32,000 nucleotides of DNA from Candidatus Saccharimonadota bacterium (GCA_963718045.1 OY970350.1:120001-152000), one strand, 5' to 3'; shown: positions 6,701-25,415, counted from the first letter of the stretch. The notes: generated by a model not told the origin, from the letters alone. Numbers and translations are program-made.

Positions 6701-9700
6701 ACAGCCGGTCAACTTGTATTTAACAATGGTATCAATAGTAACTCTATAACCTTTACTCAACCGGCTTCCCAGCCATCAAGCGCAATCAATATTGGTTTAC
6801 CATCTGTAGCTGGGACTGTTGCAGTTAAAGGGACTGGGCCCATATCAGTTGATAATACCGGTACAATAAGTTGTAGTGACTGTGCTGTTACTGGCAGCGG
6901 CGGCTCGGGAGCAAACGTAGTCACAACTTTAAATGGCTTAGATAATGCAGTCAGCATAACTGATTCACTTAATAATGCATTTAGTACCAGTGGCCAAAAC
7001 GTACAAATAGCCAATGCTTCAACCAGCAATTTAGGTCTCGTTAAGATTAACAATGACGGGAATCTAACCGTTTCTAGTGGCGTCGTAGATACCGCACAGA
7101 ATATCCAAACTAGCTCTAGCCCACAATTCGCAAGCGTATATCTGGGCAGTGCTGGTCCTAGCGGGAATGATGGCCAACTAGTCTTCTATGATGGTAGCAC
7201 TGGCTACAAACTAACTCTAAATCAGCTTACTTTAACCAATAATCAGACTATACACATACCAAACAACTCTGGTACTTTAATTGTTGCTGTCGGTTCATCT
7301 AATAACTTAACCCTAAATAATGGTGTAGTAGATACTGCTAACGCAGTAAACTTCCCAACATCAGTAACTACAGCAGAATTACTATCGGGTTCAAGTTCAC
7401 TACAGATTGGTTCGACTTCTTCAGTTCAGCCCTTTACCTTAAATGGTACAGCAGGCACAAGTGGTAGCTACTCATCATTGGATTTATATAGCGGCACTTA
7501 CAACACTAAGATAGATTTTGCAGTACCGGCAACAGGCAATAACGTCTACACATTCCCTGATGCAGGCGGCATTTCAGCAACTGTTTGTTTGCAAAATACA
7601 GGCAGTAGTTATAACAGCTGTACCTATGGATCAGGCTTAAATGGTATTGGTAGTTCAAATCAAGTAGCCTATTTCTCGGGTACCGGCACTCTATCAAGCG
7701 CAACGAATTTCTATGATAACGGCTCCACCGTAGGGCTTGGTGGTGTATCGTCAGGTTTTGGTACCCATACTCAGTTAACAGTTAATACAAATGCCACAGC
7801 AGTCAATAGTGCAGTTACTCAGCTTAACAGCGGCACCAGTAATCCGACTTACATACCTTTAGTTGTTGAAGGTGCTTCCAGTCAAACAGCTGATCTATTA
7901 GATATAGATAGTAATGCTGGAACCCCACTTGCCGGCTTTAATAGTACCGGAAACCTATATTTTAGCGGTTCTTCAAATAACACCATTACCGGTGCTAGCA
8001 ATGAAAACCTTACATTACAGAGTCAGGGCGCTGGTCAGTTACTTCTTAATTCTGCTGGCAGCAGCCTAGCGCTACAAGTAGGCGGTACGACAGAGGCTAC
8101 CGTAAGCAGTGCAGGCAACTTCAACCTACTTAATGGAAGTTATCAATTGGGGGGAAGTACTACATTATCGTCAGCAGCCTTAACCTTCACAGCTAGTACC
8201 GATAGCATTACCGGCCCATCAGGTAGCAGCATTACCTTAGATACTACTGGCTCAGGTATCCTATATCTAGGCAATACTAACGCTCCTAATATATATCTTG
8301 GTAATGGTAACTCAACCACTACAGTAGCCGGGCAGTTGTCTCAGAGCTACTCTAGTCCATCAGCTAGCACAGCAGATACTATTGGCTTTACAAATAGTAA
8401 CAGTGCAGCCGGGGTAGCTATTCAAGGTATTAGTCTAACACCTGCTAACACCACTCCATCCTCAGGTACTAACACTCTGAATGTTCTTAACTTTGTCGCT
8501 GGATCAGGAACGAATGCCACGGCCATCACCAATGGTGTTAACTTTGCTAGCAGTACTGGCTATTCTAACTTTATTAACGCACCAAACTTTGTAGTAGGTA
8601 GTAATGGGGTAATAACACTTGGGACTGTAGGTACAACAGAAGGAGAGCTTACCCTGAATAGTAGCCATTCTGGTGGGTCATTTAGTATTGAGCCAAGTGT
8701 TAATCAGGCTAAATCTACTATCTTATATTTACCAACAGACAGTTCCAGTACCGATACAGTTTGTCTAGTTTCTGATTGTACCGGTGCTGGTGCCGGCTCC
8801 GGTGATAGTAGCTATATATATAACACTTATTCCAGCCAACAATCACCTGGCAACATAGATATCGAGAGTGCTGTAGGGTATGTAGCCGCTAGTATTCAGG
8901 GGGCTTCTGGCCAAGACATAATGGATCTATATTCTAATGGTGGTACTCTTGTAGCCCACTTTGACAGTAGTGGAAATCTTAGCGCGGGCACTATCAATGG
9001 AGCAACTATTACTAGTACTGCCTTTGACGGTGCTACTCTAAGTGGCGGTTCTCTAAGTGGCAGCAGTCTATCAGCAACTCAGTTACTATTCAGTGGCGTT
9101 ACCGGTACAGTTACTACTAACTCTGGAGATAATTTAACAATTGATACTGGTGGTGGTACTTCCACACTTAACCTTGGCAATGCTTATGCTACAACCATAC
9201 AAATTGGTAACACCACCTTAAGCTCAGGTACCCAGACAATCAATATTGGCAATAACAACACATCAGGTGGTACTACCAATGTTAATATAGGCAATGGTTC
9301 AACGGCTCTTGGTACGGTAGCTATTCAGGGTGGGAACATAACACTTACAACCGTAGGGTCTGGTACTACCACTATAAGCAATATTTATAATAATACCGGT
9401 ACAGGAACTGCGCTTAAAGATAATGCTTCAGATATCCAAAGCGGCAGTTCTGGCAGCAGTACTGTTAATGCTGACACTATAAGTTTAACCGGCAATGCTA
9501 CTTCCGGTGAGACTATTAATCTAAACGGTATAAACTTTGCTAATGTTTCAGCAATTGCTAACAACACTTTCAACGGTCTTTACTTTGGTACTGGCTATAA
9601 TAATGCCATTCAAGGTGTCGGATCCCTTAACATAACCGGAGCAGGAGCCAGTACTTGGGATATAGGAGCTAACACTTTATCTCTCCAAACACTTTCTGGC

Positions 9701-12700
9701 GGCGCAATCACTACCGGTACGGGGTTATTTACCCTCGGAGGTAACGTTGCCTTATCTGCAGCCGCACCTTCAATATATAGCTCTACTACTAACTCTGGAT
9801 TAACGTTACAAGCAAACGGTACGGGAGCATTAACACTTAATTCATCTGGAACAACTGGCACAATTGGTGCTATCCAGATTGGTAACGCAAGTACTGCATC
9901 TGTAACCCAGAGCATAAATATAGGGAACAACGCAGGTGCATCATCTGTCTCGACCGTTACTGTTGGCTCAGTTCTAGGTGCCAGTGCTCTTACCCTACAA
10001 GCCGGAACAGGCAACCTAGCCCTAACTACCGGTAGTACCGGTGGTAGTAATATCACCCTAACAACTGATTATGCCTCTTCTAAAATAATTGCTAAATCTA
10101 CTATTAACTCTATTACTGCCTTCCAGATACAAGGGAGCAGTAGCACTGTCTTAACGGCTGACACAACGAATAGCCGGCTAGGAGTGGATAACTCTTACAC
10201 CCAGATAAGTACGCCTGCTTCAGCGCCGACAGTCAACGGTCCATATGCTGGAGGGAGCTTAACATATCCGAATACTTATTACTACGAAATTACAGCTGTT
10301 GATTCAATGGGCGGTGAAACTACTCCTAGCTCGCAAGGAGCTAGCGGTACTCAAACCAGCAGTGCTAACAGAACATATACCATCACATGGAGTGCAGTAA
10401 GTGGAGCTAGTGCTTATAAAATCTACCGCTGTTATGGGACAAGCGGTTGTACTGAAGTTTACATTGCTTCAACCTCAACAACCAGTTATACAGATAACGG
10501 TGTTACAGCTGGCACAGCTATACCGCCAACTACAAATACTGCCTATGTATCGACTAATAGCTCCAACAACAACGGCCAAGTAACCATTGGCGGCAATGGT
10601 ACTCCGACCGGACAGCTATATGTATCAGGTACCGTGCCATCAACGCTCACGGGGGCAACTGGTTATAATATTAGTAACCCAATCTCTACATATGTCTCTG
10701 GCCACTATGCCTACACAATCAGCAATGGCAATAGCGAATTAGTAATTGATGATATTTCCAACCCAGCCAGTCCAACTTATATTAGTGAAATAGGTACTAA
10801 CATTAGCGGCGGACGCTATGTCTATGTTTCTGGTCACTATGCTTATGTTGTCTGCGGTGGCACTACCGGTGAACTAATAATATTTGATATTTCCAATCCA
10901 TTCAGCCCGGCATATGTCAGTGAAACAACCACTAACCTGAATACTCCAAATGATATCTATGTCCAAGGTAATTATGCCTATGTAACAAGCGGCACTAACG
11001 GCACTAATAGCGATTTAGTAATCTTCAATATTTCCAATGCATTCAATCCAGCTTATGTTAGTGAAATAAGCACTAACCTGAATACGCCAAAAACTGTTTA
11101 CATTCAGGGTAATTATGCCTATATCACTAGTTATGGTAGTGGTTACCTAGTAATCGATAACATCTCCAACCCCGCCAACCCAACCTATGTTGGCGAAACA
11201 AACTCTAATTTAGACGGACCTTGGGGTTTATTTGTCTCTGGCAGTTATGCTTACATTGGTGAGGCCACACTTGGTTACCTAGTAATCGATAACATCTCCA
11301 ACCCCGCCAATCCAACCTATATTACCAAAACTAGTACTAATATAAATTACCCGGTATCCGTCTATGTCCAGGGCCGCTATGCCTACATTGCCAATAACGA
11401 AGGTAACTCTATGTCAATCGATGATATCAGCAACCCCTACAATCCAATCAGTGTAGGATTAACTGTCTCTAATTTAAGCTATCCAAGCGGTGTTTTCATC
11501 TCCGGACGCTATGCCTACGTAGATAGCAGCAATAATAACTCATTAGTAATTTATGATTTAGGCGGCACATATGATCAACAGCTGCAAGCTGGCGGGGCAG
11601 AATTAGGTACTTTGCAGGTAGATGGTAACTCGATTATGAGTGGCGATGCTTCTGTACAGGGTGGTCTGGCAGTCGGCAGTAATGCCCAAATACAGGGCGG
11701 CCTTAGCGTGGCCGGTTCTTCAACTCTTGGCAGTTTAAGTTTGAGCGGACTGGCCACACCGGCTGCTCCGACCGAAACAGTAACTTGTAGCGGTACTTGT
11801 GCTACCTCGTACAATTATGCCGTAGCGGCTATCAATGTCAGTGGTGTAACGGCTGCCTCTGCCAGTACTTCAACCGGAGCTACAGCTAATGCCTCACTAA
11901 ATACCACAACTGAATACAATAGAACTGGCTGGACTGCTGTAACCGGTGCTACTGGCTACAATATATATAGGACAGCCGGCGGGGCCGCTCAGGGCCTGAT
12001 AGGTACAGTCCCAGCTTCCAGCATTACCGCTCCGACTCCCACCTCAGGTAGTGAAACCGGTGCTACCTTGACCCTAAACTACTCCATACCACCACCATTC
12101 GTAATCGGCCAAGCCATTACTCTGGCTGGCTTTACTATGAATACCGGATCAGTTAACGGTACCTGGCCAATCCTATCGGTAACCTCTTCGGCTATTACTA
12201 TCAATATACTGAGTGGTGTTACTTCTACTATCAGTACCATGGGTACGGCTACCGGCATACTAGGTTTCTATGACACTGCCCAGACTGCCGGAACCTCAGC
12301 CCCGACCACGACTACTGCCGGAAGCTTAACAGTTAATGGCCCTGGCTTATTTGAGAATGCTTCTAACTCCACTACAGCCTTCCAGGTACAGAATGCCAGT
12401 GGCTATACATTATTGGGGGTAGATACAACAAGTGCAGACAATGACGTAATAATAGGCCAATCTAGTAATCTTACCGGTAACCTTATATTTGCCAACGCTA
12501 GTAATTCCTACACATTTAGTTTGACTGCCTCAACTGCGGCGAGCGGAAATATCTCTCTAATCTTGCCGTCTGTTGCACCGTCAGCTGGCCAATGTTTGAC
12601 AGCAACAAGCAGTACGCAATTAGCTTTTGCAGGCTGTGGTACATCTCACGCTAAACAGATAACGCTAGCAGCCGAATATGCTGGGGCTGTATTGGATAGC

Positions 12701-13159
12701 GCCGGTGATTCAAGTTGTTCTAGTGCTAATGTCGGGACAATGACTAGTGGCTATAATGATACAGATTCTACACCTCAATCATATTACCAGTGGTCAACTG
12801 TTCAAAGCTCGGCACGATGTTACGATGTTGTTGTTCAAATACCTATACCTAGCGACTGGTCTTCTTGGACTGGTACACCAACCATTTATGCATCTGCGGG
12901 TACGGGTGGCAGTATTGCCATAGCTGCCATAGCATCAAACGGTACCGAGGAATCAAACTACGGTACCATGTCGGCTGGTGTTGCAGCTTACCATAGCGAG
13001 ACAACAACTGGCTCTCTGGCGACTGTAACCCTACAAGGACTAACCAGCGCTAGCGATTCTGCAAATGGCGTACTCACTCTAAAAATTAGGATGTCCGCAA
13101 CCAGTAGCGGTAATACAGAAATAGGTACAATTATCATTCCGTATACATCGGCCTATTAA
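3785..13159 (+). CDS. Giant (3,124 aa) N-terminally anchored surface protein: long G/S/T/N-rich repetitive stalk, FN3-like modules, LVIVD-repeat beta-propeller, C-terminal domain of unknown function
   Basis: Single uninterrupted 9,375-nt ORF. It has one hydrophobic segment at aa ~49-72 (nt ~3929-4000). More than 2,000 aa are low-complexity strand-like repeats (e.g. GNTSLTGTLSVQGAVTLGS). FN3-like stretches occur at nt ~10230-10500 (..YYYEITAVD..AYKIYR) and ~11790-12000 (..YNYAVAAIN..GYNIYR). No SD is seen before the ATG. Confidence 0.9.
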   Translation: MKPEDNSLESGSEASQYNSSLEGGYQTSNAPNIPIKSPKVSISLFKFNKLAILITVSTLLFIGLLGGGAFIYDKTHSKASSLNSLEASGTYKNGSTLAVNQAQQADLLTLGQVNQLSVNGQLTVNKTLVLTPSTTPTSPIAGEIYFDSTTNKPYVYNGSQFVSLQIPAQYVANVGGITGNIVLGNGLTINGNTVNVSNSLLQSISSAASSTSVVSSLQGATGNVTLSSGSGISINGTTVSNTGVLNLTSLNGSIVITNSGSGSYNLALSGGGGVILGPNAAQIDNSNNPSIYINKTNNGNLLELQNNGVDQFVVNQSGNLGINGSFTQNGTGTFSTGSGAVSLNGNTTITGGNSLTVSSGATTLRGTLGVTGVSTLGSLGVSSFSDSGAASVTGNTSLTGTLSVQGAVTLGSNSPATQGSLIFDNGTNNNVISIVPSVPTGSGDVSVEFPALTGGSSDYFCVTGPDANCGTSATTVTTSSSGTSGDIAEFTGANQIANSPITDNGSNALTIQSGYTLNVGTLASVGDLNITPSGKVNINDTAQEVEIQGNASSYFSVSANGKTNKLAFTSPTSAQPTNYTITVPDESGTICLDNDAANCGFATSGSGVTDVNGYTGVICIQDANDNGSCSGNNVTINNATSSALGIASFSSTDFNVSSGAVTTVQNISTSGDVQFDGLSLGSGYNCTAPETGSLCLSTGGTVYTSNIVNPSSTAPLQVTSANSIFQFDQEGTTFEFPTGYGNTTHDICVSGVSCATGTGAAVILQPSSAQADDGSIAGIFINDINSNCTLGTNCKDLVDLQNGGSDVFTVDQYGNAQFDQTLYANTIQPISGAGGITVGTSGTSQTFTLQGNSGSEIEITNPNGGVSYIGIENPSGGTASSQSVYYALDDTQAPSSGTNGGNAAANPIFICTSANSYCTASSGITGTGTTGDLPLFNGAHSLANSILSQSSSNIAIAGSSSTSSLTIGNISSTAGQLVFNNGINSNSITFTQPASQPSSAINIGLPSVAGTVAVKGTGPISVDNTGTISCSDCAVTGSGGSGANVVTTLNGLDNAVSITDSLNNAFSTSGQNVQIANASTSNLGLVKINNDGNLTVSSGVVDTAQNIQTSSSPQFASVYLGSAGPSGNDGQLVFYDGSTGYKLTLNQLTLTNNQTIHIPNNSGTLIVAVGSSNNLTLNNGVVDTANAVNFPTSVTTAELLSGSSSLQIGSTSSVQPFTLNGTAGTSGSYSSLDLYSGTYNTKIDFAVPATGNNVYTFPDAGGISATVCLQNTGSSYNSCTYGSGLNGIGSSNQVAYFSGTGTLSSATNFYDNGSTVGLGGVSSGFGTHTQLTVNTNATAVNSAVTQLNSGTSNPTYIPLVVEGASSQTADLLDIDSNAGTPLAGFNSTGNLYFSGSSNNTITGASNENLTLQSQGAGQLLLNSAGSSLALQVGGTTEATVSSAGNFNLLNGSYQLGGSTTLSSAALTFTASTDSITGPSGSSITLDTTGSGILYLGNTNAPNIYLGNGNSTTTVAGQLSQSYSSPSASTADTIGFTNSNSAAGVAIQGISLTPANTTPSSGTNTLNVLNFVAGSGTNATAITNGVNFASSTGYSNFINAPNFVVGSNGVITLGTVGTTEGELTLNSSHSGGSFSIEPSVNQAKSTILYLPTDSSSTDTVCLVSDCTGAGAGSGDSSYIYNTYSSQQSPGNIDIESAVGYVAASIQGASGQDIMDLYSNGGTLVAHFDSSGNLSAGTINGATITSTAFDGATLSGGSLSGSSLSATQLLFSGVTGTVTTNSGDNLTIDTGGGTSTLNLGNAYATTIQIGNTTLSSGTQTINIGNNNTSGGTTNVNIGNGSTALGTVAIQGGNITLTTVGSGTTTISNIYNNTGTGTALKDNASDIQSGSSGSSTVNADTISLTGNATSGETINLNGINFANVSAIANNTFNGLYFGTGYNNAIQGVGSLNITGAGASTWDIGANTLSLQTLSGGAITTGTGLFTLGGNVALSAAAPSIYSSTTNSGLTLQANGTGALTLNSSGTTGTIGAIQIGNASTASVTQSINIGNNAGASSVSTVTVGSVLGASALTLQAGTGNLALTTGSTGGSNITLTTDYASSKIIAKSTINSITAFQIQGSSSTVLTADTTNSRLGVDNSYTQISTPASAPTVNGPYAGGSLTYPNTYYYEITAVDSMGGETTPSSQGASGTQTSSANRTYTITWSAVSGASAYKIYRCYGTSGCTEVYIASTSTTSYTDNGVTAGTAIPPTTNTAYVSTNSSNNNGQVTIGGNGTPTGQLYVSGTVPSTLTGATGYNISNPISTYVSGHYAYTISNGNSELVIDDISNPASPTYISEIGTNISGGRYVYVSGHYAYVVCGGTTGELIIFDISNPFSPAYVSETTTNLNTPNDIYVQGNYAYVTSGTNGTNSDLVIFNISNAFNPAYVSEISTNLNTPKTVYIQGNYAYITSYGSGYLVIDNISNPANPTYVGETNSNLDGPWGLFVSGSYAYIGEATLGYLVIDNISNPANPTYITKTSTNINYPVSVYVQGRYAYIANNEGNSMSIDDISNPYNPISVGLTVSNLSYPSGVFISGRYAYVDSSNNNSLVIYDLGGTYDQQLQAGGAELGTLQVDGNSIMSGDASVQGGLAVGSNAQIQGGLSVAGSSTLGSLSLSGLATPAAPTETVTCSGTCATSYNYAVAAINVSGVTAASASTSTGATANASLNTTTEYNRTGWTAVTGATGYNIYRTAGGAAQGLIGTVPASSITAPTPTSGSETGATLTLNYSIPPPFVIGQAITLAGFTMNTGSVNGTWPILSVTSSAITINILSGVTSTISTMGTATGILGFYDTAQTAGTSAPTTTTAGSLTVNGPGLFENASNSTTAFQVQNASGYTLLGVDTTSADNDVIIGQSSNLTGNLIFANASNSYTFSLTASTAASGNISLILPSVAPSAGQCLTATSSTQLAFAGCGTSHAKQITLAAEYAGAVLDSAGDSSCSSANVGTMTSGYNDTDSTPQSYYQWSTVQSSARCYDVVVQIPIPSDWSSWTGTPTIYASAGTGGSIAIAAIASNGTEESNYGTMSAGVAAYHSETTTGSLATVTLQGLTSASDSANGVLTLKIRMSATSSGNTEIGTIIIPYTSAY
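10660..11565 (+). repeat. Seven LVIVD-type repeats (predicted 7-bladed beta-propeller) inside the giant CDS
   Basis: The motif YAY(V/I)..(n)..L(V/I)I(D/F)(D/N)ISNP..P.Y(V/I)(S/G)E recurs seven times by my count. Two units share a near-identical ~47-nt DNA block (about 11146-11192 and 11274-11320). Confidence 0.75.
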
Positions 13160-13235: not shown

Positions 13236-16200
13236 ATGTCTAAAAAGTCGGCAACATTAAATCAAAAGGATAAAGCAAATGGAGATGTAACTACTAGCGA
13301 AATAGCAGCTAGATTAGTTCCATCTCGTAAATATGCCCAACTGACAACCAAAACGAAGTTTATTAATAAATTCGTTCAGACTAAGAGAAAAGTAACCAAA
13401 ATTGGTAATTCTAAATATCTATTAGCCACAAGAAGGGAACTTAGAAAAACAATTAAACAAATAACCTGTAGTCCGGTGACTATAAAATTTGTATGTATAT
13501 ATAAAGGACTAACTAAAACAGTTATCTATCGGACTGATTTTATTACAAAACCAATTAAGAAAAAGCTCCAGCCACCAATTAGTCTATTTATCCGTCGGTT
13601 TAACAAAGTAGTTGACCGGCTTGGCCGAAAACGCGTTAAGTGGGTAAGCTACGGATTATTTAGCACCCTAGTGGTTGTAGCTATAGCAGTTGGTTCCATA
13701 GCCTATATCCATAACTTGATTAATTCCAGCTATAATCTGCCGGTTAACGAACAAGCTTTGATCGGATCCCCTGACACTGCCTTAATGAAATCCCAATTAA
13801 CCTATAACTCTAAAACTAAAACATACTACCTAGACAAATCGGGCATAGACAAGAGTTCCAGTTCTACTCCCGGAGTCCCATCTGGAGATAACAGTATTAG
13901 CATCGGATCTAAATCTAATTCAGCCTTTAGTCTAGTAATACCTACTAACATCCATCAAGGCTTTACAGCTTATGACAATACCTACGGACTATCCTTCACC
14001 CTAACTCCTGAGTTTGACGCTATGAACGCCAAGATGGTAGACGGTCATCTAGTCTATCCAATGGGACTAAATTCAACTAAAGACGTCTACACCATTAAGG
14101 CTAATGGTCTCCAAGAAAACATAGTCTATAACTCTGCGCCAGCGGGAACAGTCAAACTAGCCTATAAACTGGAATTGCCCAGTACCCTCCAAGCTAAAAT
14201 GATGCCAGGCGGTAACATAGGTATTTATTCAGCCAGTCCATATTTATTCGGTAACATCAGCTACGGCTCAGCTAAAGACCAAGCCCTGGTAGCTAAAGCC
14301 AGACTTAACGCCGCTAAAACTAACCTGGTCTTTGTCTTACCAGCTCCGGAAATAACCGACAACGACGGAATGGCTCCAACTAACGTTCAACAACAAACTA
14401 AATTCAGTCTTAAAGGGGACATCTTAACCTTAACTGCCAGCGATTTAGGCGGTATCCATGGCCCGATCTCCATCGACCCGAGTGTTATTGATGCCAGTGC
14501 CAGTTCTTTTGGCCAGGGTAATAACGAAAGTGATATATCATTTGCCAATTCCAGCATATCTGAAGCCGGACTTAGCGGCGGCGGTCTAGCTGGCAACACC
14601 AATAGCTGTGGGGCATCTTGGTGTGCCTCGAACGGTACTGCCGGCACGGGCGCCAACCTGCCGGCTGCTACCTACGAAGCCACCGCTGTCGCCTACAATG
14701 GCTACGTCTATCAGATAGGGGGGTATGCTGGCAGTCCCACCGCCGTAGTGGACTACGCGGCACTCACCAGCAGTGGTGCGCTGGCCGCACCGGGTTCGGC
14801 TGCCTGTACCGCTGGCGGCGGTTCTATTGCCGGTGACTGGTGTGCCTCGAACGGTACTGCCGGCACGGGCGCCAACCTGCCGGCTGTCACCTCCCAACCC
14901 ACCGCTGTCGCCTACAACGGCTACGTCTATCAGATAGGGGGGTGTTCTACTGCTTGCCCCACCGCCGTAGTGGACTATGCGGCTATCACCAGCAGCGGGG
15001 CGCTGGCCGCACCGGCTTCGGCTGCCTGTACCGCTGGCGGCGGTTCTATTGCCGGTGACTGGTGTGCCTCGAACGGTACTGCCGGCACGGGCGCCAACCT
15101 GCCGGCTGCCACCGACTACGCCACCGCTGTCGCCTACAATGGCTACGTCTACCAGATAGGGGGGTATACTACCGCTGCCACCGCCGTAGTGGACTACGCG
15201 GCTATCACCAGCAGTGGTGCGCTGGCCGCACCGGGTTCGGCTGCCTGTACCGCTGGCGGCGGTTCTATTGCCGGTGACTGGTGTGCCTCGAACGGTACTG
15301 CCGGCACGGGCGCCAACCTGCCGGCTGCTACCTACGAAGCCACCGCTGTCGCCTACAATGGCTACGTCTATCAGATAGGGGGGTGTTCTACTGCTTGCCC
15401 CACCGCCGTAGTGGACTACGCGGCTATCACCAGCAGTGGTGCTCTGGCCGCTCCCGGCAGTTGTGCTGGTACTATCACCGGCTATTGGTGTGCCTCAACT
15501 TCTACGGCTAACGGCAGCCTGCCGGCTGCTACCTACGTCGCTACCGCTGTCGCCTACAATGGCTACGTCTATCAGATAGGGGGGATGGCTGGCGGTGCCA
15601 CCGCCGCAGTGTACTACGCCCCGATATACAATGGTGGCAATATTGGCCCCTGGTCATCCACCACTAGCCTACCGGCTGCTACCTACTACGCTACCGCTGT
15701 CGCCTACAATGGCTACGTCTATCAGATAGGGGGGTATACTACCGCTGCCACCGCCGTAGTGGACTACGCGGCTATCAGCAGTCCAGGAGATGTTGCTCCT
15801 TGGACAGCCTCAACTTCTACGGCTAACGGCAGCCTGCCGGCTGCTACCTACGAAGCCACCGCTGTCGCCTACAATGGCTACGTCTATCAGATAGGGGGGT
15901 ATACTACCGCTGCCACCGCCGTAGTGGACTACGCGGCTATCACCAGCAGTGGTGCGCTGGCCGCTCCCGGCAGTTGTGCTGGTACTATCACCGGCTATTG
16001 GTGTGCCTCAACTTCTACGTCTAACGGCAGCCTGCCGGCTGCTACCTACGGCGCCGCCGCTGTTGCCTACAACGGCTATGTCTACCAGATAGGGGGGTAT
16101 GCTGGCAGTGTCACCGCTGTAGTGGACTACGCGGCTATCACTAGCAGTGGGGCGCTGGCCGCTCCCGGCAGTTGTGCTGGTACTATCACCGGCTATTGGT

Positions 16201-18518
16201 GTGCCTCAACTTCTACGTCTAACGGCAGCCTGCCGGCTGCTACCTACGGCGCCGCCGCTGTTGCCTACAACGGCTATGTCTATCAGATAGGGGGGTATAC
16301 TACCGCTGCCACCGCCGTAGTGGACTACGCGGCTATCACCAGCAGTGGTGCGCTGGCCGCTCCCGGCAGTTGTGCTGGTACTATCACCGGCTATTGGTGT
16401 GCCTCAACTTCTACGTCTAACGGCAGCCTGCCGGCTGCTACCTACTACGCTACCGCTGTCGCCTACAATGGCTATGTCTACCAGATAGGGGGGTATGCTG
16501 GCAGTGTCACCGCTGTAGTGGACTACGCGGCTATCACTAGCAGCGGGGCGCTGGCCGCACCGGCTTCGGCTGCCTGTACCGCTGGCGGCGGTTCTATTGC
16601 CGGTGACTGGTGTGCCTCGAACGGTACTGCCGGCACGGGCGCCAGCCTGCCGGCTGCTACCTACTACGCCACCGCTGTCGCCTACAATGGCTACGTCTAT
16701 CAGATAGGGGGGTATGCTGGCGGTGCCACCGCTGTAGTGGACTACGCGGCTATCACCAGCAGTGGGGCGCTGGCTGCTCCCGGCAGTTGTGCTGGTACTA
16801 TCACCGGCTATTGGTGTGCCTCAACTTCTACGGCTAACGGCAGCCTGCCGGCTGCTACCTACGTCGCTACCGCTGTTGCCTACAACGGCTATGTCTATCA
16901 GATAGGGGGGTATGCTGGCAGTCCCACCGCCGTAGTGGACTACGCGGCTATCAACAACGGCGGGCCGGCGACGTTGAGTGCTTGGGCTGCCACCGGCAGT
17001 CTGCCGGCTGCTACCTACCAAGCCACCGCTGTCGCCTACAACGGCTATGTCTATCAGATAGGGGGGTATGCTGGCAGTGTCACCGCTGTAGTGGACTACG
17101 CGGCTATCACTAGCACTGGGGCGCTGGCCGCTCCCGGCAGTTGTGCTGGTACTATCACCGGCTATTGGTGTGCCTCAACTTCTACGTCTAACGGCAGCCT
17201 GCCGGCTGCTACCTACTACGCTACCGCTGTCGCCTACAATGGCTATGTCTATCAGATAGGGGGGTGTTCTACTGCTTGCCCCACCGCCGTAGTGGACTAT
17301 GCGGCTATCACCAGCAGCGGGGCGCTGGCCGCACCGGCTTCGGCTGCCTGTACCGCTGGCGGCGGTTCTATTGCCGGTGACTGGTGTGCCTCGAACGGTA
17401 CTGCCGGCACGGGCGCCAACCTGCCGGCTGTTACCTACGGCGCTACCGCTGTCGCCTACAATGGCTATGTCTATCAGATAGGGGGGTATGCTGGCATTGT
17501 CACCGCCGTAGTGGACTACGCGGCTATCACCAGCAGCGGGGCGCTGGCTGCTCCCGGCAGTTGTGCTGGTACTATCACCGGCTATTGGTGTGCCTCAACT
17601 TCTACGTCTAACGGCAGCCTACCGGCCGCTACCTACCTCGCTACCGCTGTCGCCTACAACGGCTACGTCTATCAGATAGGGGGGTGTTCTACTGCTTGCC
17701 CCACCGCCGTAGTGGACTATGCGGCTATCAATTCCAGCACCGGTGCTGTCGGTACCTGGACTGCCACTGGCAGCCTGCCGGCTGCTACCTACTACGCTAC
17801 CGCTGTCGCCTACAATGGCTATGTCTATCAGATAGGGGGGTGTTCTACTGCTTGCCCCACCGCCGCAGTGTACTACGCCCCGATATACAATGGTGGCAAT
17901 ATTGGCCCCTGGTCATCCACCACTAGCCTGCCGGCTGCTACCTACCAAGCCACCGCTGTCGCCTACAACGGCTATGTCTATCAGATAGGGGGGTATACTA
18001 CCGCTGCCACCGCCGTAGTGGACTACGCCGGATTGCAATCCATGCCCCGAATTGGCTTTTACTCACAGTTAATCGACATGTCCGGCTCATCAACCGAAGA
18101 TCCAGCCGCCGATTATATACTTGCCAATGGCTCCCAAACAGGGGATCCTGGCATAGGCGGTCTTAGCGGCCCAGGTACTGGGGGTATATCTATAAATTAC
18201 CAATTTGCCTCTAATGCTTGCCCGACCTTTAATAGCTCAACTGCGCTAACTACTAGCGCGCTAGTACTCGGTACTCCTTACCCCATGACTTCTTCTTCCA
18301 ATGGCTGCAGCAGTTCTTCAGATACTAATTTTGGCCGTTGGGTTTGGGTTACTGTCAAACTCGATGATTCCCAAACTGCGACATTCCCGGACTCTAGCGG
18401 TAACCATGCTACAATAACGGGATTCACGTTGTATTATCACCCGGCGACTAATGGAAGACTGCGTGGCGGAGCCACTTTTAGCAATGGTTCTTTACAAACG
18501 CTTGATGCACCACCTTGA
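13236..18518 (+). CDS. Giant (1,760 aa) membrane-anchored surface protein with 18 Kelch-like tandem repeats
   Basis: Uninterrupted ORF 76 nt downstream of the previous giant gene. It has a Lys/Arg-rich ~135-aa N-terminus, one TM segment (VSYGLFSTLVVVAIAVGSIAYI), a ~300-aa unique ectodomain, the repeat array, and a ~250-aa unique C-terminal domain. Confidence 0.9.
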   Translation: MSKKSATLNQKDKANGDVTTSEIAARLVPSRKYAQLTTKTKFINKFVQTKRKVTKIGNSKYLLATRRELRKTIKQITCSPVTIKFVCIYKGLTKTVIYRTDFITKPIKKKLQPPISLFIRRFNKVVDRLGRKRVKWVSYGLFSTLVVVAIAVGSIAYIHNLINSSYNLPVNEQALIGSPDTALMKSQLTYNSKTKTYYLDKSGIDKSSSSTPGVPSGDNSISIGSKSNSAFSLVIPTNIHQGFTAYDNTYGLSFTLTPEFDAMNAKMVDGHLVYPMGLNSTKDVYTIKANGLQENIVYNSAPAGTVKLAYKLELPSTLQAKMMPGGNIGIYSASPYLFGNISYGSAKDQALVAKARLNAAKTNLVFVLPAPEITDNDGMAPTNVQQQTKFSLKGDILTLTASDLGGIHGPISIDPSVIDASASSFGQGNNESDISFANSSISEAGLSGGGLAGNTNSCGASWCASNGTAGTGANLPAATYEATAVAYNGYVYQIGGYAGSPTAVVDYAALTSSGALAAPGSAACTAGGGSIAGDWCASNGTAGTGANLPAVTSQPTAVAYNGYVYQIGGCSTACPTAVVDYAAITSSGALAAPASAACTAGGGSIAGDWCASNGTAGTGANLPAATDYATAVAYNGYVYQIGGYTTAATAVVDYAAITSSGALAAPGSAACTAGGGSIAGDWCASNGTAGTGANLPAATYEATAVAYNGYVYQIGGCSTACPTAVVDYAAITSSGALAAPGSCAGTITGYWCASTSTANGSLPAATYVATAVAYNGYVYQIGGMAGGATAAVYYAPIYNGGNIGPWSSTTSLPAATYYATAVAYNGYVYQIGGYTTAATAVVDYAAISSPGDVAPWTASTSTANGSLPAATYEATAVAYNGYVYQIGGYTTAATAVVDYAAITSSGALAAPGSCAGTITGYWCASTSTSNGSLPAATYGAAAVAYNGYVYQIGGYAGSVTAVVDYAAITSSGALAAPGSCAGTITGYWCASTSTSNGSLPAATYGAAAVAYNGYVYQIGGYTTAATAVVDYAAITSSGALAAPGSCAGTITGYWCASTSTSNGSLPAATYYATAVAYNGYVYQIGGYAGSVTAVVDYAAITSSGALAAPASAACTAGGGSIAGDWCASNGTAGTGASLPAATYYATAVAYNGYVYQIGGYAGGATAVVDYAAITSSGALAAPGSCAGTITGYWCASTSTANGSLPAATYVATAVAYNGYVYQIGGYAGSPTAVVDYAAINNGGPATLSAWAATGSLPAATYQATAVAYNGYVYQIGGYAGSVTAVVDYAAITSTGALAAPGSCAGTITGYWCASTSTSNGSLPAATYYATAVAYNGYVYQIGGCSTACPTAVVDYAAITSSGALAAPASAACTAGGGSIAGDWCASNGTAGTGANLPAVTYGATAVAYNGYVYQIGGYAGIVTAVVDYAAITSSGALAAPGSCAGTITGYWCASTSTSNGSLPAATYLATAVAYNGYVYQIGGCSTACPTAVVDYAAINSSTGAVGTWTATGSLPAATYYATAVAYNGYVYQIGGCSTACPTAAVYYAPIYNGGNIGPWSSTTSLPAATYQATAVAYNGYVYQIGGYTTAATAVVDYAGLQSMPRIGFYSQLIDMSGSSTEDPAADYILANGSQTGDPGIGGLSGPGTGGISINYQFASNACPTFNSSTALTTSALVLGTPYPMTSSSNGCSSSSDTNFGRWVWVTVKLDDSQTATFPDSSGNHATITGFTLYYHPATNGRLRGGATFSNGSLQTLDAPP
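14601..18029 (+). repeat. In-frame tandem array of 18 Kelch-like units (about 150-222 nt each), markedly GC-rich
   Basis: The core AVAYNGYVYQIGG occurs 18 times in the translation. DNA periods of 219-222 nt show in the regularly spaced alternative-frame ORFs (14840, 15062, 15281). Long stretches are near-identical between units. Confidence 0.95.
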
Positions 18519-18596
18519 TAATAATTATCGGCATCATATAAACAAAAACTTAATTTCTACCTACCAAACTGTAGCAAGTTCAACATCAGATTTAGC

Positions 18597-18625
18597 TTGA
18601 CCATATCTGTTAAAATTGCTAAAAT
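18597..18625 (+). promoter_or_regulatory. 16S promoter (TTGACC-17 nt-TAAAAT)
   Basis: Near-consensus hexamers with 17-nt spacing, ~200 nt upstream of mature 16S, and duplicated exactly upstream of 23S. Confidence 0.7.
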
Positions 18626-18758
18626 GTTTATTGATTGTTTGAGTTTAGGTAGAGCCTTAAGCCAGGCTTTAAGTTTCAGTCGTAAACTCAAGCACCTAGA
18701 GAGACTTACTTAGGCGGTGAAGATTCACCCTAAGTTTTGGACCGAACGCTAGAGTTTC

Positions 18759-18773
18759 GATCATTAACAATTT
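18759..18773 (+). promoter_or_regulatory. boxA-like antitermination element in the 16S leader (GATCATTAACAATTT)
   Basis: 12 of 13 match to the E. coli rrn boxA core TCTTTAACAATTT as I recall it. Conserved in the 23S leader copy. Confidence 0.55.
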
Positions 18774-18790
18774 GGTAGTGCAAATCAACG
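18766..18790 (+). other. 16S processing-stem, 5' half (pairs with 21656-21680)
   Basis: AACAATTTGGTAGTGCAAATCAACG is almost perfectly complementary to CGTTGAAATGCACTACCAAGTTGTT downstream of 16S. This geometry is typical of an RNase III stem. Confidence 0.65.
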
Positions 18791-18827
18791 TCAGTTCATT
18801 TTGAATTGTTTTAAACAAATTCTTTTT

Positions 18828-18874
<47 letters not shown>

Positions 18875-19689
18875 TACATGCAAGTCGAGCGGTAAGGCTC
18901 CTTCGGGAGTACACGAGCGGCGGACGGCTGAGTAACGCGTAGGAACCTACCCTAAAGTGAGGGATAAGCACCAGAAATGGTGTCTAATACCGCATATGCT
19001 CTTTGGAGTAAAGCTACGGCGCTTTGGGAAGGGCCTGCGTATGATTAGCTTGTTGGTGAGGTAAAAGCTCACCAAGGCGACGATCATTAGCTGGTCTGAG
19101 AGGATGATCAGCCAGACTGGGACTGAGAACGGCCCAGACTCCTACGGGAGGCAGCAGTAGGGAATCTTCCACAATGGGCGAAAGCCTGATGGAGCAACGC
19201 CGCGTGCAGGATGAAGGCCTTCGGGTCGTAAACTGCTTTTATATGTGAAGATTATGACAGTAGCATATGAATAAGGATCGGCTAACTCCGTGCCAGCAGC
19301 CGCGGTCATACGGAGGATCCAAGCGTTATCCGGAATTACTGGGCGTAAAGAGTTGCGTAGGTGGCATAGAAAGCGGGCAGTGAAATTGTATGGCTCAACC
19401 ATATAGACATTGTCTGAACTACTAAGCTAGAGGACGAGAGAGGTACCTGGAAGTCCCAGTGTAGGAGTGAAATCCGTAGATATTGGGAGGAACACCGATG
19501 GCGTAGGCAGGGTACTGGCTTGTTTCTGACACTAAGGCACGAAAGCTAGAGCAGGGACCCGGATTAGATACCCGGTTACTTCTAGCTGTAAACTATGGAT
19601 GCTAGCCGTTATCGGTATCGACCCCGGTAGTAGCAAAGCTAACGCGTTAAGCATCCCGCCTGTGGAGTACGGTCGCAAGACTAAAACAT

Positions 19690-19725
<36 letters not shown>

Positions 19726-19830
19726 GTGTTGTTTAATTCGAAAGTAAGCGAAGAACCTTACCCAGGCTTGACTTCCTGCGAATTTCTCCGAAAGGAGAGA
19801 GTGCTTTTATTAGAGCGCAGTGACAGGTGG

Positions 19831-19877
<47 letters not shown>

Positions 19878-20161
19878 TCAACGAGCGCAACCCTTATGTT
19901 TAGTTGAATTTTTCTAAACAGACTGCCCTGGTAACAGGGAGGAAGGAGGGGATGATGTCAGGTCCGTATCTCCCTTACGTCTGGGGCCACAGACACGCTA
20001 CAATGGCCGATACAAAGGGCAGCCAAGTCGCGAGACGGAGCTAATCCCATCAAAATCGGTCTCAGTTCGGATAGTAGGCTGAAACTCGCCTGCTTGAAGC
20101 TGGAATCGCTAGTAACGGTAAGTCAGCATATTACCGTGAATACGTTCCCGGGTCTTGTACA

Positions 20162-20568
20162 AAATAAATGCGCCTGGCAGTGCATTGGACTAGATGGTGT
20201 AAATCCATCCTTAGTAGCTGCGAGCAGGACATCTTTGGCAACAAAATGTCTGAAGGGCTCTACATGCGAAGAATAGCCTTTACAGATTGATGACAACAAT
20301 CAAGTGGCTCTTTCGACTCTACTAACGTGTACGTAGGGGAAGAAAGCTAGATAAGCCGGTAAGGAATGTTTGAAATAGCCCAGTGTATAACCCAGGGAGA
20401 TCCTCATAACGAGTGTAATCAGTGTGGTTATGAGGAAGTCAGCTGAGTTCATAGTACCTTTATCTAAAGGGAAGGAACGAACTTTATGTCTAACAAAACA
20501 TAAAGACTCGCTGGATGCGTTAGACGCGCACGTCCAGTGGGGAGTACCCGAGATTACCGGAGTACAGT
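20162..20568 (+). other. 407-nt ORF-less insertion in 16S after E. coli position A1396; class unresolved
   Basis: The universal block CTTGTACA|CACCGCCCGTCA is interrupted. The junction is unambiguous. No group I core blocks are seen. Several perfect hairpins are present (20402-20410/20427-20435 and 20482-20489/20498-20505). Confidence 0.8.
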
Positions 20569-20655
20569 CACCGCCCGTCAAATCATGAAAGTCGCCAATA
20601 CCCGACGTGTAAGCTTTGTCTTGCCCTAAGGTAGGGGAGATGATTGGGATTAAGT

Positions 20656-21469
20656 TTAACGGCTTCTTATGCGAGTAATTGCATATGCCTATCCAACTAT
20701 ATCGGTGAACTCCTATTGCATCTCAAGCTATAATGCGTAGTAGATATGCAAGGACAATACCGAGGGAAGTTGGGCTAGAAACTAAAATGGCACACACAAG
20801 AGCAGCTAATTACCTGAAAACTATACAACTACTAGCTTTTGAGAAGGAAGTAGCTACAGCATGTTTAATAGGTGATGGCACGCTCGTAAAGTCTGGCAAA
20901 CAATATCGACTTAGGATTAGTCATACTATTCGTCACAGTGACTATGTACGCTGGAAGTATCATTTACTTCAGCGTATATGCGTTACCGCTCCACAGTATG
21001 TCTCAATGACTTCGTCGCTTCGATTTGGTACAGTAGGTCATCCAGATTTGTCAGAGATGCGACATCAGTGGTATGAAAACGGAGTAAAACATATTCCATC
21101 AAGTTTTCAATTAACGCCATTGATGATTGCAGTCTGGTTTATGGATGATGGCTGCAAACATAGCAAGACAGTAGATTTCTCAGTACATTGCTTTTCCGTA
21201 AAGAGCATTAATATCCTACAGAGAGCTTTGTCAGAATTCGATATTGCTACAACCATTAACTTCGACGGAAAAGGAAGTAGGTTATATGTCAGACAAAATA
21301 GCTATTTTAAGTTCAAAGAACTTGTTAAACCATACATACAACCATGTATGGCATACAAGTTGCCCTAACCCCGTAGAGGCCATACGTTGGCTCCATCGAA
21401 AGGTGGATGAAGATATGGTCCGACACCCTTAGTAATAAGGGGTCTTAGAGAATAAGACGCAACAGTAAG
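20656..21469 (+). mobile_element. Group I-like intron in 16S after U1495, carrying a homing-endonuclease ORF (family 2)
   Basis: It interrupts GATTAAGT|CGTAACAAGG. The 5' exon ends in U and the insert ends in G. It shares the blocks AATACCG.GGGAAGT (20753-20771) and AAGATATGGTCC (21410-21421) with 23S introns D and E. Confidence 0.8.
20733..21368 (+). CDS. LAGLIDADG homing endonuclease, two-motif type (intron-encoded)
   Basis: Motifs TACLIGDGTL and IAVWFMDDGCK. The ORF lies wholly inside the 16S intron. The true start may be the ATG at 20787, downstream of an intron core block. Confidence 0.85.
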   Translation: MRSRYARTIPREVGLETKMAHTRAANYLKTIQLLAFEKEVATACLIGDGTLVKSGKQYRLRISHTIRHSDYVRWKYHLLQRICVTAPQYVSMTSSLRFGTVGHPDLSEMRHQWYENGVKHIPSSFQLTPLMIAVWFMDDGCKHSKTVDFSVHCFSVKSINILQRALSEFDIATTINFDGKGSRLYVRQNSYFKFKELVKPYIQPCMAYKLP

Positions 21470-21686
21470 CGTAACAAGGTATCCGTACGGGAACGTGCGG
21501 ATGGATTACCTCCTTTCTAGGGAGTAAAACTAGCAATCAGTTGAGCAATCTCTGATCAGCTAGGTCGATCTCGATAAGTTGTTTATTTCAGTACTGACAA
21601 CTTATATAGCTAAGATTTATCTTAGACGAGACATCAGTTCTGAGCTAACGAACAACGTTGAAATGCACTACCAAGTTGTTAAATAG

Positions 21687-21720
21687 AAAAGAGCTCCGAT
21701 TTACCGAAGCTCTTTTTTTA
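21687..21720. terminator. Bidirectional intrinsic terminator between 16S (+) and tRNA-Ile (-)
   Basis: AAAAGAGCT..(12-nt loop)..AGCTCTTTTTTT: a stem flanked by an A-tract on one side and a T-tract on the other, between convergent transcription units. Confidence 0.6.
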
Positions 21721-21727
21721 TTCCATT

Positions 21728-21804
21728 TGGTGGGCGATGGAGGACTCGAACCACCGACCTCGTCATTATCAGTGACGCGCTCTAACCAGCTGAGCTAATC
21801 GCCC
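21728..21804 (-). tRNA. tRNA-Ile (anticodon GAU), CCA encoded
   Basis: The reverse complement folds as a cloverleaf: acceptor GGGCGAT/ATCGCCC, anticodon arm CGTCA-CTGATAA-TGACG, T-loop TTCGAGT (one U-U mismatch in the T stem). Confidence 0.93.
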
Positions 21805-21817
21805 TTATTTATTCCTA

Positions 21818-21894
21818 TGGTGGAGCATATCGGACTCGAACCGATGACCCCCTGCTTGCAAAGCAGGTGCTCTAGCCAACTGAGCTAATGCCCC
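21818..21894 (-). tRNA. tRNA-Ala (anticodon UGC), CCA encoded
   Basis: The reverse complement folds as a cloverleaf: acceptor GGGGCAT/ATGCTCC with the G3:U70 Ala identity pair, and anticodon arm CCTGC-TTTGCAA-GCAGG. Confidence 0.95.
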
Positions 21895-21930
21895 GAAGCC
21901 AAGGAAGAAACAAACCAAACTACCGGTGTA

Positions 21931-21959
21931 TTTTATCTTAACAGTGCTAGTCATACAAG
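21931..21959 (-). promoter_or_regulatory. Possible promoter for the antisense tRNA pair (TTGTAT-17 nt-TAAAAT on the minus strand)
   Basis: Read from the reverse complement, ~36 nt upstream of the tRNA-Ala 5' end. The -10 hexamer is the same as in the rRNA promoters. Confidence 0.4.
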
Positions 21960-22161
21960 TTTTACTATCTAATCAAAGGTATACTCTAAAAAGAAGGTCT
22001 ATAAGTAAATAATATGAATACAAAAGCAGGGTTCATAAATAGTTGTATATATACCAACATTAGTTACCATGTTACAGATAGAGACTTTATTAACTTATAA
22101 ATTGAATAGTAGAATTACTAAGTATTGTTGGTATCCGTACTGCAAGATAACCGATCTCTTA

Positions 22162-22170
22162 TGATATAAT
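22162..22170 (+). promoter_or_regulatory. Extended -10 element TGATATAAT immediately upstream of the 22181 ORF
   Basis: Exact TGnTATAAT ending 10 nt before the ATG, with no SD between them. This implies a leaderless or near-leaderless mRNA. Confidence 0.4.
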
Positions 22171-22180
22171 CGTTAGCGTT

Positions 22181-22999: not shown

Positions 23000-23187
23000 C
23001 AAACCCGAGAATAAGTGGCAGAAATGGACTATTCTTGTGCTTATTTTCTTTTATTTATTGAAGGTGGTTACCAAACAGCAAATATACCATATGCCCCGCT
23101 TAGTCCCTAAAAGTAACCAATCCTAATTAACAAAACCCAGCATATCTTCATCTACCAAACTGTAGCAAGATCAACATCAGATTTAGC

Positions 23188-23216
23188 TTGACCATATCTG
23201 TTAAAATTGCTAAAAT
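23188..23216 (+). promoter_or_regulatory. 23S-5S promoter (TTGACC-17 nt-TAAAAT)
   Basis: Exact duplicate of the 16S promoter core. Confidence 0.7.
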
Positions 23217-23356
23217 GTTCATTGATTGTTTGAGTTTAGGTAGAGCCTTAGGGTTCATGAACAAACCTTAAGTTTCAGTCGTAAACTCAAGCACCTAGAG
23301 AGACTTACTTAAGCGGTGAAGATTCACCTTAAGTTTGGAACGAACGCTGGAGTTTC

Positions 23357-23371
23357 GATCATTAACAATTT
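23357..23371 (+). promoter_or_regulatory. boxA-like element in the 23S leader (GATCATTAACAATTT)
   Basis: Identical to the 16S-leader element. Confidence 0.55.
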
Positions 23372-23379
23372 GGTAAGAT

Positions 23380-23426
23380 AAGCAATTAGACAAACGGCTA
23401 TTGGTTAACACCAATGACCAGTCAAT
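23380..23426 (+). other. 23S processing-stem, 5' half (pairs with 28480-28525)
   Basis: AAGCAATTAGACAAACGGCTATTGG and CCAATGACCAGTCAAT are complementary to CCAATACGTTTGTTATAATTGCTT and ATTGACTGGTCATTTG downstream of 23S. Confidence 0.6.

Positions 23427-25382: not shown

Positions 25383-25415
<33 letters not shown>

Follow-up and report, generated by a model that had tools for sequence, protein, structure and literature searches.

Gene and predicted protein

We analysed a stretch of 32,000 nucleotides (nt) from a Candidatus Saccharimonadota bacterium (GCA_963718045.1, OY970350.1:120001-152000), referred to below as the window, in which a plus-strand open reading frame (ORF) at 13236–18518 encodes a 1760-amino-acid (aa) protein carrying an array of Kelch repeats. 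By the ORF list and the identity of its flanks, the whole gene (13236–18518) codes for a Kelch-array protein, predicted to be membrane-anchored, and is the ortholog of g1, a gene present at the related loci L002 and L004. All parts of the gene described here lie on the plus strand.

The protein opens with a basic tail (aa 1–136; 13236–13643), which the positive-inside rule would place in the cytoplasm; aa 1–138 contain 36 Lys or Arg residues against 6 Asp or Glu. It is followed by a single strongly hydrophobic stretch (aa ~137–160; 13644–13715) that is predicted to be the sole transmembrane anchor. Kyte–Doolittle hydropathy in a 19-residue window peaks here at 2.19 (aa 140, GLFSTLVVVAIAVGSIAYI), and windows above 1.6 start nowhere else than between aa 134 and 146.

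Beyond the anchor lies a conserved, beta-rich N-terminal ectodomain (aa 165–455; 13728–14600), which AlphaFold2 modelled with a predicted local distance difference test score (pLDDT) of 84.3 and a predicted template-modelling score (pTM) of 0.81. A Foldseek search with the modelled aa 165–460 returned weak matches only (E >= 1.5e-3), to the N-domains of GH92, GH63 and PL33, which are beta-sandwich accessory domains of glycosidases. By sequence the N-domain had no match in the Protein Data Bank (PDB), and the N-terminal 473 aa had none in Pfam at E <= 0.1. After the array, the protein ends in a conserved C-terminal domain (aa 1602–1760; 18039–18515) that is 88 per cent identical to the orthologs and contains one Cys pair. 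This domain terminates in the family motif YHPA...RLRGG.TF.NG.L..LD..P. The R, L and G of the motif, and the DD of an upstream DDSQTATFPD stretch, are conserved in at least 90 per cent of the family, and neither Pfam nor the PDB gave a sequence match to the domain.

The ectodomain has 38 Cys residues, which fall into 19 local pairs (C-x3-C, C-x8-C, C-x11-C, a leading C-x4-C and the C-domain pair). Hydropathy, the charge of the tail and this pairing suggest an N-in membrane anchor with a disulfide-bonded ectodomain. In the best-supported reading, this ectodomain of ~1600 aa is made up of the conserved N-domain, 18 Kelch blades and the conserved C-domain. Two further ORFs overlap the array, one at 14586–14897 on the minus strand (103 aa) and one at 17684–17926 on the plus strand in another frame (80 aa). 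Their peptides are low-complexity products of the repeat, whose DNA is rich in guanine and cytosine (GC), and we regard both ORFs as spurious.

Anatomy of the repeat array

The array proper spans 14604–18038. An exact core, AVAYNGYVYQIGG, occurs 18 times in the ORF, at aa 484–1574, with core-to-core spacings of 73, 74, 73, 67, 50, 55, 66, 66, 66, 73, 66, 52, 66, 74, 66, 52 and 51 aa before a terminal unit (T). The units thus come in three sizes, in the order L L L M S S M M M L M S M L M S S T. The M units (66–67 aa) carry the Cys-bracketed insert SCAGTITGYWC and the L units (73–74 aa) the Cys-bracketed insert AACTAGGGSIAGDWCASNGTAGTG, while the S units (50–55 aa) read ...AVAYNGYVYQIGG-x5/6-TAVVDYA...W.... 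Tandem Repeats Finder reported periods of 219/441, 198 and 156 bp over 14619–18029.

A first-pass annotation of the window, made from its DNA alone, had already described the 18-fold core, the three unit sizes with their order and both Cys-bracketed loops, and all of these were reproduced. Its boundaries for the array, 14601–18029, lie within ~10–60 nt of ours. It had called the DNA of the units near-identical, which is too strong: the framework is ~92 per cent identical between blades, with a proportion of synonymous differences (pS) of 0.17.

The longer units differ from the plain ones by an extra outer hairpin with a local Cys pair, inserted between strands C and D in 13 blades, and the L type adds a short helix. 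Blades 5, 6, 12, 16, 17 and 18 are plain and have no insert. By strand topology, the C-D insert would sit on the rim of the blade or on the side away from the variable loops described below.

Directly after the GG doublet of each blade there is a cassette of 5–6 codons that forms the B-C loop. The 18 cassettes are spread over 14724–18008 (the first at 14724–14738, the last at 17994–18008) and comprise CSTACP and YTTAA (five each), YAGSV (three), YAGSP (two) and single copies of MAGGA, YAGGA and YAGIV. Every cassette listed in the first-pass annotation is present, and the list had overlooked only the YAGGA of unit 11. CSTACP puts a C-x3-C pair into the B-C loop of blades 2, 4, 14, 16 and 17 (14943–14960, 15384–15401, 17265–17282, 17685–17702 and 17841–17858). 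The ortholog carries CATACP or CTTACP in blades 3, 9 and 10, and so has kept the cassette without keeping its blade position.

Kelch fold and arrangement of the blades

The array scored above threshold with two Pfam Kelch models: PF24681 (Kelch) reached 99.8 bits against a cut-off of 50, in 5 stretches, and PF01344 (Kelch_1) reached 24.6 bits against a cut-off of 20.1. The S-type units (50–55 aa) also conform to the Kelch blade, which is ~44–56 aa long and has four strands, GG after strand B, Tyr in strand C and Trp in strand D. No BTB or BACK match was found in Pfam at E <= 1, and we reject membership in the BTB-Kelch (KLHL) group.

An AlphaFold2 model of aa 445–1615, built from an alignment of 61 sequences, had a mean pLDDT of 85.9 and a pTM of 0.73. 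By DSSP, each of the 18 blades has strands A, B and C, and the long units have a helix and a hairpin in addition. The outer strand is clear (3–5 residues) in the insert-bearing blades and in blade 12, is reduced to bridges of 1–2 residues in blades 5, 6, 16 and 17, and is absent from blade 18. In a Foldseek search of the PDB, the listed matches of ranks 2–50 were single Kelch domains of ~275–360 aa, with target TM-scores of 0.70–0.84 over 320–390 columns, or one third of the query; the best of them, all six-bladed, scored 0.75–0.84 over 320–385 columns. These matches include LZTR1 (9mez), NS1-BP (5yy8), KLHL12 (6v7o), KLHL2, KLHL3, KLHL17, KEAP1 (1u6d), KLHDC10 and the designed SAKe6 propellers, at E-values of 1e-15 to 6e-19 for a query that is itself a predicted model. 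Rank 1 was a 4407-aa flagellar microtubule-repeat chain with a target TM-score of 0.07. By sequence, blades 1–6 matched only designed SAKe6 propellers in the PDB (8pjt, 8pjv, 7onc and others; E about 1e-6), which fits an array that stays close to a repeated consensus blade. The Pfam scores and the match of the model to solved six-bladed Kelch domains bear out the earlier suggestion that the units are Kelch blades. Among viral folds, the only matches were to generic Kelch propellers from jumbo phages and poxviruses, and a phage origin is not indicated.

The 18 blades probably form three consecutive six-bladed propellers, as the first-pass annotation had proposed; the Foldseek scores over one third of the query, the blade lengths and the blade counts all point this way. 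The putative propeller 1 comprises blades 1–6 (L L L M S S; 14658–15833), as parsed from the units and as expected from the length pattern of the L002 ortholog and the six-bladed Kelch matches. On the basis of unit parsing and fold matches, propeller 2 would comprise blades 7–12 (M M M L M S; 15834–17000), of which blade 12 is short in both orthologs, and propeller 3 blades 13–18 (M L M S S and a terminal blade with no D strand; 17001–18038). The L002 ortholog also has 18 blades, with spacings of 70, 65, 70, 66, 51, 50 / 70, 71, 70, 68, 66, 59 / 73, 73, 73, 73, 50. Short blades occur at 5, 6, 12, 17 and 18 in the two proteins, both of which begin L L L M S S, and blades 6, 12 and 18 are short or terminal in both, giving short blades a period of six. 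A blade hidden Markov model run over 121 family members found 18 as the modal count (46/121), followed by 17 (in 26) and 16 (in 16), the last two being partly due to missed blades. There is also a small cluster at 22–25 blades, which includes the paralog P0002 with 24. Blade number appears to be fixed by ring closure, at 18 or 24.

The array starts with a lone D strand (SCGASWCAS...) and stops after a C strand. The lone outer strand, SCGASWCASNGTAGTGAN (14604–14657), precedes blade 1 as a leading half-blade whose sequence equals the tail of an L-type unit, and it may act as the closure (‘velcro’) strand. In a 1+3 closure of this kind, the C-to-D connections of blades 6 and 12 would cross between rings, which may be why these two blades have no insert.

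Recombination among blades

The cassettes and the loop types occur in every combination: all 9 pairings of {CSTACP, YTTAA, YAGS*} with {L, M, S} are present in the array. Cassette and loop states are separated by multiple base changes and by indels, so that the nine combinations cannot be put down to recurrent mutation. In addition, 85 of 190 informative site pairs failed the four-gamete test. Both results agree with the earlier proposal of recombination among units. The independent assortment of cassettes and loops that went with that proposal is true in part, since the cassettes have been reshuffled across loop sizes while the order of blade lengths is partly fixed (the first six are L L L M S S).

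Framework identity is 92 per cent within the window array, 63 per cent within the L002 ortholog and 70 per cent between the two. Repeats within the gene are thus more alike than orthologous repeats between species, which is concerted evolution. Blade-to-blade pS (0.17) is half of the pS of the ortholog flanks (0.32–0.34), which dates the homogenisation to after the split of the two species.

The array also differs in base composition from its surroundings. Overall GC is 0.60–0.62 in the array and ~0.42 around it. At four-fold degenerate sites, GC (GC4) is 64 per cent in the array (14604–18038), 38–39 per cent in the N- and C-domains (13236–14600 and 18039–18515), 32 per cent in the large gene upstream and 39 per cent in gyrA. 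The excess of array over N-domain GC4 is +0.25 in the window, +0.22 in P0012, +0.18 in the L002 ortholog, +0.18 in its paralog g2, +0.13 in P0008 and -0.03 in the diverged P0034 (P numbers denote family members). Amino-acid composition does not account for the raised array GC4, which is a candidate footprint of GC-biased gene conversion.

Variable positions

We aligned the 18 units by codon and calculated Nei–Gojobori proportions over blade pairs. Alignment column 7, two residues before the inner strand A, is the most variable of all columns scored, with a mean pairwise difference of 0.84 per amino acid and 1.68 nt per codon; all other framework columns differ by no more than 0.31. The 18 codons of this column lie between 14676 and 17948, with first bases at 14676, 14895, 15117, 15336, 15537, 15687, 15852, 16050, 16248, 16446, 16665, 16863, 17019, 17217, 17439, 17637, 17793 and 17946. 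Immediately before AT-AVAY, they read TAC (six units), GAA, CAA and GGC (three each), GTC (two) and CTC (one). The proportion of non-synonymous differences (pN) at column 7 is 0.64, compared with a pN of 0.027 and a pS of 0.17 in the framework. The hypervariable residue reported at first pass is therefore ranked first by a formal per-site alignment. It is not the only such position in each blade, as had been thought: the B-C cassette (pS 0.11, pN 0.43) is a second hypervariable patch, and in relatives two residues of the D-A loop vary.

The same pattern is seen across the family: when the entropy within each protein is averaged over 117 homologs, the maxima fall in the B-C loop and at the two residues that precede strand A. 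Of 118 arrays, that of the window is the most homogenised (mean 0.38 bits), and it nevertheless has 2.40 bits at column 7, where the family mean is 2.73. Four other homogenised arrays (P0013, P0012, P0008 and P0105) vary at the same columns (5–6 and 22–29) and almost nowhere else.

Column 7 is linked in part to the next Ala codon. GAA and CAA occur with GCC (CCC in unit 2), GTC and CTC with GCT, and TAC with GCT in four of its six units, while GGC is mixed. This linkage suggests that two old haplotype lineages are being re-dealt. Since the alleles recur and are partly linked to the following codon, they look like reshuffled standing alleles and not like fresh hypermutation.

Strand topology would assign column 7 to the D-A loop and the cassette to the B-C loop, and so bring both patches onto one face of the propeller. 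The ligand pocket of KEAP1 is built from its D-A and B-C loops (PMC12314335), the same two loops that vary in the window array. Given this analogy and the topology, the variable residues are putative ligand contacts, and selection may be the cause of their retained diversity.

Relatives and genomic neighbourhood

The window protein is itself absent from the database, where its best match is 61 per cent identical. Compared with the g1 product of L002, the N- and C-domains are 88 per cent identical and the array 56–61 per cent. A word-indexed search found 121 homologs, of which the few with names are almost all from Saccharibacteria or Saccharimonadales. The N-domain family comprises 506 clusters at 50 per cent identity and is always located near the N-terminus of proteins of ~1400–2000 aa. 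Scanning genome contigs with the N-domain found no relative, and a metagenome scan found only L004, the ortholog with 88 per cent identity. We found no paper on this Kelch family or on Kelch proteins in Saccharibacteria.

The ortholog g1 is located at 2901–7652 in L001, 4367–9733 in L002 and 9509–14875 in L004, and is nucleotide-identical in two JGI metagenome datasets. In the nearest relatives the gene order is LVIVD giant, Kelch g1, Kelch g2, 16S. The paralog g2 (P0002, with its 24 blades, among them) is found at 10001–16183 in L002, 7845–14102 in L001 and 15056–20890 in L004. In L002 and L003 it separates g1 from the ribosomal RNA (rRNA) operon, and in L001 and L004 it is the gene directly after g1. 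No g2 is present in the window, where g1 is followed by 18519–18823 and then by the 16S gene.

Upstream of the Kelch gene, a 3124-aa protein is encoded at 3785–13159 on the plus strand. It has an N-terminal hydrophobic stretch and matches LVIVD (1.6e-30, 6 stretches). This gene ends 76 nt before the Kelch gene, and no promoter-like plus-strand site was found between them. An LVIVD giant (3888 aa) also directly precedes the Kelch genes in L002, a giant gene does so in L004, and L001 has a partial ORF of 906 aa at this place. The LVIVD protein is probably a giant surface protein expressed together with the Kelch protein.

The window further contains gyrB and gyrA. Downstream of the Kelch gene is an unusual, intron-rich rRNA operon (18824–28695). 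The 16S gene (18824–20213, plus strand) is followed by a group II intron D1–D4 fragment (20400–20477) and then by a LAGLIDADG_2 ORF (20733–21368). Genes for the transfer RNAs (tRNAs) tRNA-Ile and tRNA-Ala lie on the minus strand (21728–21894), between the 16S and 23S genes, which are both on the plus strand. Three group I introns, at 25415, 26549 and 27423, interrupt the 23S gene (23467–28433), with a LAGLIDADG_1 ORF (25922–26479) between the first two. Between the tRNAs and the 23S gene is an ORF of 272 aa (22181–22999) with no Pfam match. L002 and L003 have an ORF of equal length in the interval that separates the Kelch genes from the genes downstream of them.

Discussion

We consider it likely that the gene encodes a surface-anchored triple Kelch propeller of a Saccharibacteria-type bacterium (candidate phyla radiation, CPR, also called Patescibacteria), in which a scaffold homogenised by conversion displays diverse patches on its ligand face and serves in recognition or adhesion. 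Intragenic homologous recombination or gene conversion between blades would homogenise the scaffold by concerted evolution, and would have done so after the split from the nearest known relative. The same recombination would re-deal a small set of alleles among the blades, while the B-C loop and the final residue or residues of the D-A loop would stay different from blade to blade. Turned towards the host or the environment, the product would act in recognition or adhesion as a multivalent module, its specificity set by the variable patches of each blade. For a proposed function in host adhesion or recognition there is a precedent: in Saccharibacteria, a pilin that bears a propeller contributes to binding of the host (PMC11623550). 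In addition, an arms race over epibiont surface ligands has been proposed (PMC13622651).

Several points weigh against this interpretation. The neighbours of the gene differ in distant family members, and with no conserved operon the genomic context does not support a function. The region is highly repetitive, and the assembled order of its units could be wrong in places. In a hand tally of column 7 by blade position, only 4 of 18 residues match the ortholog, where ~2.8 are expected by chance. The six recurring, partly linked alleles of this column are old alleles re-dealt, and the excess of diversity at one codon could in part be due to a relaxation of constraint, or to conversion tracts terminating where patches are mismatched.

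These last points belong to a different account, in which the variable positions are unconstrained surface residues and short conversion tracts stop at or skip mismatches, leaving old divergence in place with no diversifying selection. The linkage of column-7 alleles to the adjacent synonymous site (NAA-GCC versus NNC-GCT) is what inherited haplotype fragments would show, the same columns are the least conserved across the whole family, and column 7 has no positional conservation between orthologs. Even so, an unconstrained site in a converting array is expected to vary at about the synonymous level (pS 0.17), far from the pN of 0.64 at column 7, and heteroduplexes are unlikely to be blocked by a single divergent codon with identical flanks. 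Exactly these columns are also spared in five arrays that were homogenised independently, and we judge this account unlikely. It is less probable still that the gene is real and that the number or order of its units is partly an artefact of mis-joining or repeat collapse in a short-read metagenome assembly. The similarity of the units makes such an error conceivable, as do two unit pairs that share exact repeats of 184 and 168 bp, longer than common k-mers; with these as the longest exact repeats, short-read resolution is possible but delicate. On L001, a single ENA contig (k141_2455400), g1 equals the L002 gene in three exact blocks but has cleanly lost two segments, of 405 and 210 nt, in frame, so that it has 15 blades in place of 18 and lacks blades 2, 3 and 9. 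The two losses could be either real copy-number variation or assembly collapse. In the window itself, the frame is intact across 5.3 kb and through to the conserved C-domain, only two exact repeats exceed 150 bp, and the count of 18 and the positions of the short blades agree with the ortholog and with the family mode. The 18-blade array of the ortholog is 100 per cent nucleotide-identical on contigs of two separate metagenome datasets, and a scaffold with variable patches is also found in four proteins from other assemblies.

Two other explanations are much less likely. The protein might be a bacterial Kelch enzyme (an N-acetylneuraminate mutarotase, or similar to galactose oxidase) instead of a binding protein. 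Seven listed homologs, including P0002, P0007, P0011, P0032, P0033 and P0075, bear the automatic JGI label ‘N-acetylneuraminic acid mutarotase’, the N-domain weakly resembles accessory domains of sugar enzymes, and there is a Pfam NANM match below threshold. That match (PF24996) reaches 27.8 bits against a cut-off of 45, with a best stretch of 46 residues, and a protein of ~1760 aa with a transmembrane anchor and 18 blades is unlike the single six-bladed domain of NanM. Blades so alike apart from their loop residues point to a binding surface presented many times over and not to one active site. We reject the NanM label on its sub-threshold score and on an architecture that is not a single propeller, and consider an enzyme very improbable. 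Hardly credible is the idea that the variable codons are the work of a mutagenic system dedicated to them, such as a diversity-generating retroelement (DGR) or another programmed mechanism. DGRs are frequent in CPR genomes, and four of the six column-7 codons (TAC, GTC, GGC and CTC) are NNC, as a DGR would make from an AAC template. GAA and CAA do not fit this pattern, however, and among the B-C cassettes the differences are changes of several bases and an indel of one codon. The alleles are found repeatedly, in several blades, and undergo recombination with the flanking sequence, and 18 separate single-codon targets over 3.3 kb are unlike one template repeat. No reverse transcriptase was found among the non-overlapped ORFs of at least 100 aa in the 32-kb window, all of which were assigned elsewhere except the 272-aa ORF at 22181–22999. 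The absence of a reverse transcriptase from the window, the GAA and CAA codons and the multi-base and indel variants led us to reject the array as a DGR target.

Returning to the binding scaffold, a bolder version would make the array a natural combinatorial receptor of 18 (or 24) two-patch ‘pixels’, each made of the D-A residue or residues and the B-C loop and set on an almost invariant Kelch scaffold. Ordinary intragenic gene conversion, with neither a reverse transcriptase nor a dedicated recombinase, would redistribute a few alleles over the blades and thereby retune recognition of the host surface, the geometry of the rings would hold blade number to multiples of six, and the raised synonymous GC would be the footprint of conversion. 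We find this extension doubtful.

The protein shares its fold with the eukaryotic Kelch domains of BTB-Kelch proteins and their relatives (KEAP1, KLHL12, KLHL2/3, NS1-BP and LZTR1), including the GG doublet, the Tyr, the Trp and the four strands. Unlike them, it is bacterial, would be extracellular on a membrane anchor with three propellers per chain, and has no detected BTB or BACK domain. Its blades are also ~92 per cent alike and have outer hairpins stapled by Cys pairs, presumably as disulfides. The canonical Arg of the D-A loop is kept in the family consensus and is Thr in the window array. A close likeness is that to the Kelch giants of Saccharimonadales and Saccharibacteria (P0001–P0120), which have the same transmembrane anchor, N-domain, ~18 blades and a C-domain ending in RLRGG; among them the window stands apart in the degree to which its array is homogenised (first of the 118 compared) and in its lack of g2. 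The designed SAKe6 propellers, among the best fold matches, are similar in staying near a repeated consensus blade. They are single, engineered, fully symmetric six-blade rings, whereas the symmetry of the window array is broken by variable patches and loop inserts.

NanM (YjhT) is another bacterial Kelch propeller found outside the cytoplasm, and the source of the automatic label on some homologs. It is a single propeller of about 370 aa, and in contrast to the window array it has no homogenised repeats. A fixed framework with variable contacts is also seen in repeat-scaffold binders such as the leucine-rich-repeat internalins, the lamprey variable lymphocyte receptors and consensus repeats of the ankyrin/DARPin type, and near-identical tandem repeats under concerted evolution occur in bacterial surface proteins of the streptococcal Alp/Rib family. 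These systems share with the window protein the logic of a conserved scaffold, variability on one face and recombination between repeats that alters their content or number; its fold is a closed propeller and not a solenoid or an Ig-like tandem, its blade number does not appear to vary freely, and there is no somatic assembly machinery. Within the CPR, a Gracilibacterium surface protein with PTD repeats also has an N-terminal transmembrane anchor and extracellular repeats that evolve unusually and trouble assembly (PMC6851277). Its 9-nt units, variable in DNA sequence, encode a conserved peptide, the disordered PTD motif (PMC6851277), whereas those of the window protein are folded blades of 50–74 aa with conserved DNA and few variable residues.

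The Kelch fold is familiar, and what is undescribed is the putative 3 x 6 arrangement outside the cell, the inserts stapled by Cys, the variable-patch scaffold under concerted evolution and the family itself. The gene is a clean natural example of concerted evolution together with retained diversity, and a natural counterpart of engineered consensus Kelch scaffolds. Its array may also be a useful case for the study of GC-biased gene conversion in bacteria. For the recognition of hosts by ultrasmall episymbionts and their attachment to them, type IV pili, including the propeller-bearing pilin, have been the main candidates so far (PMC11623550). A rigid multi-propeller scaffold with a few variable residues on its ligand face is what would be expected of a binder that determines specificity, and the Kelch protein offers a concrete candidate for this role.

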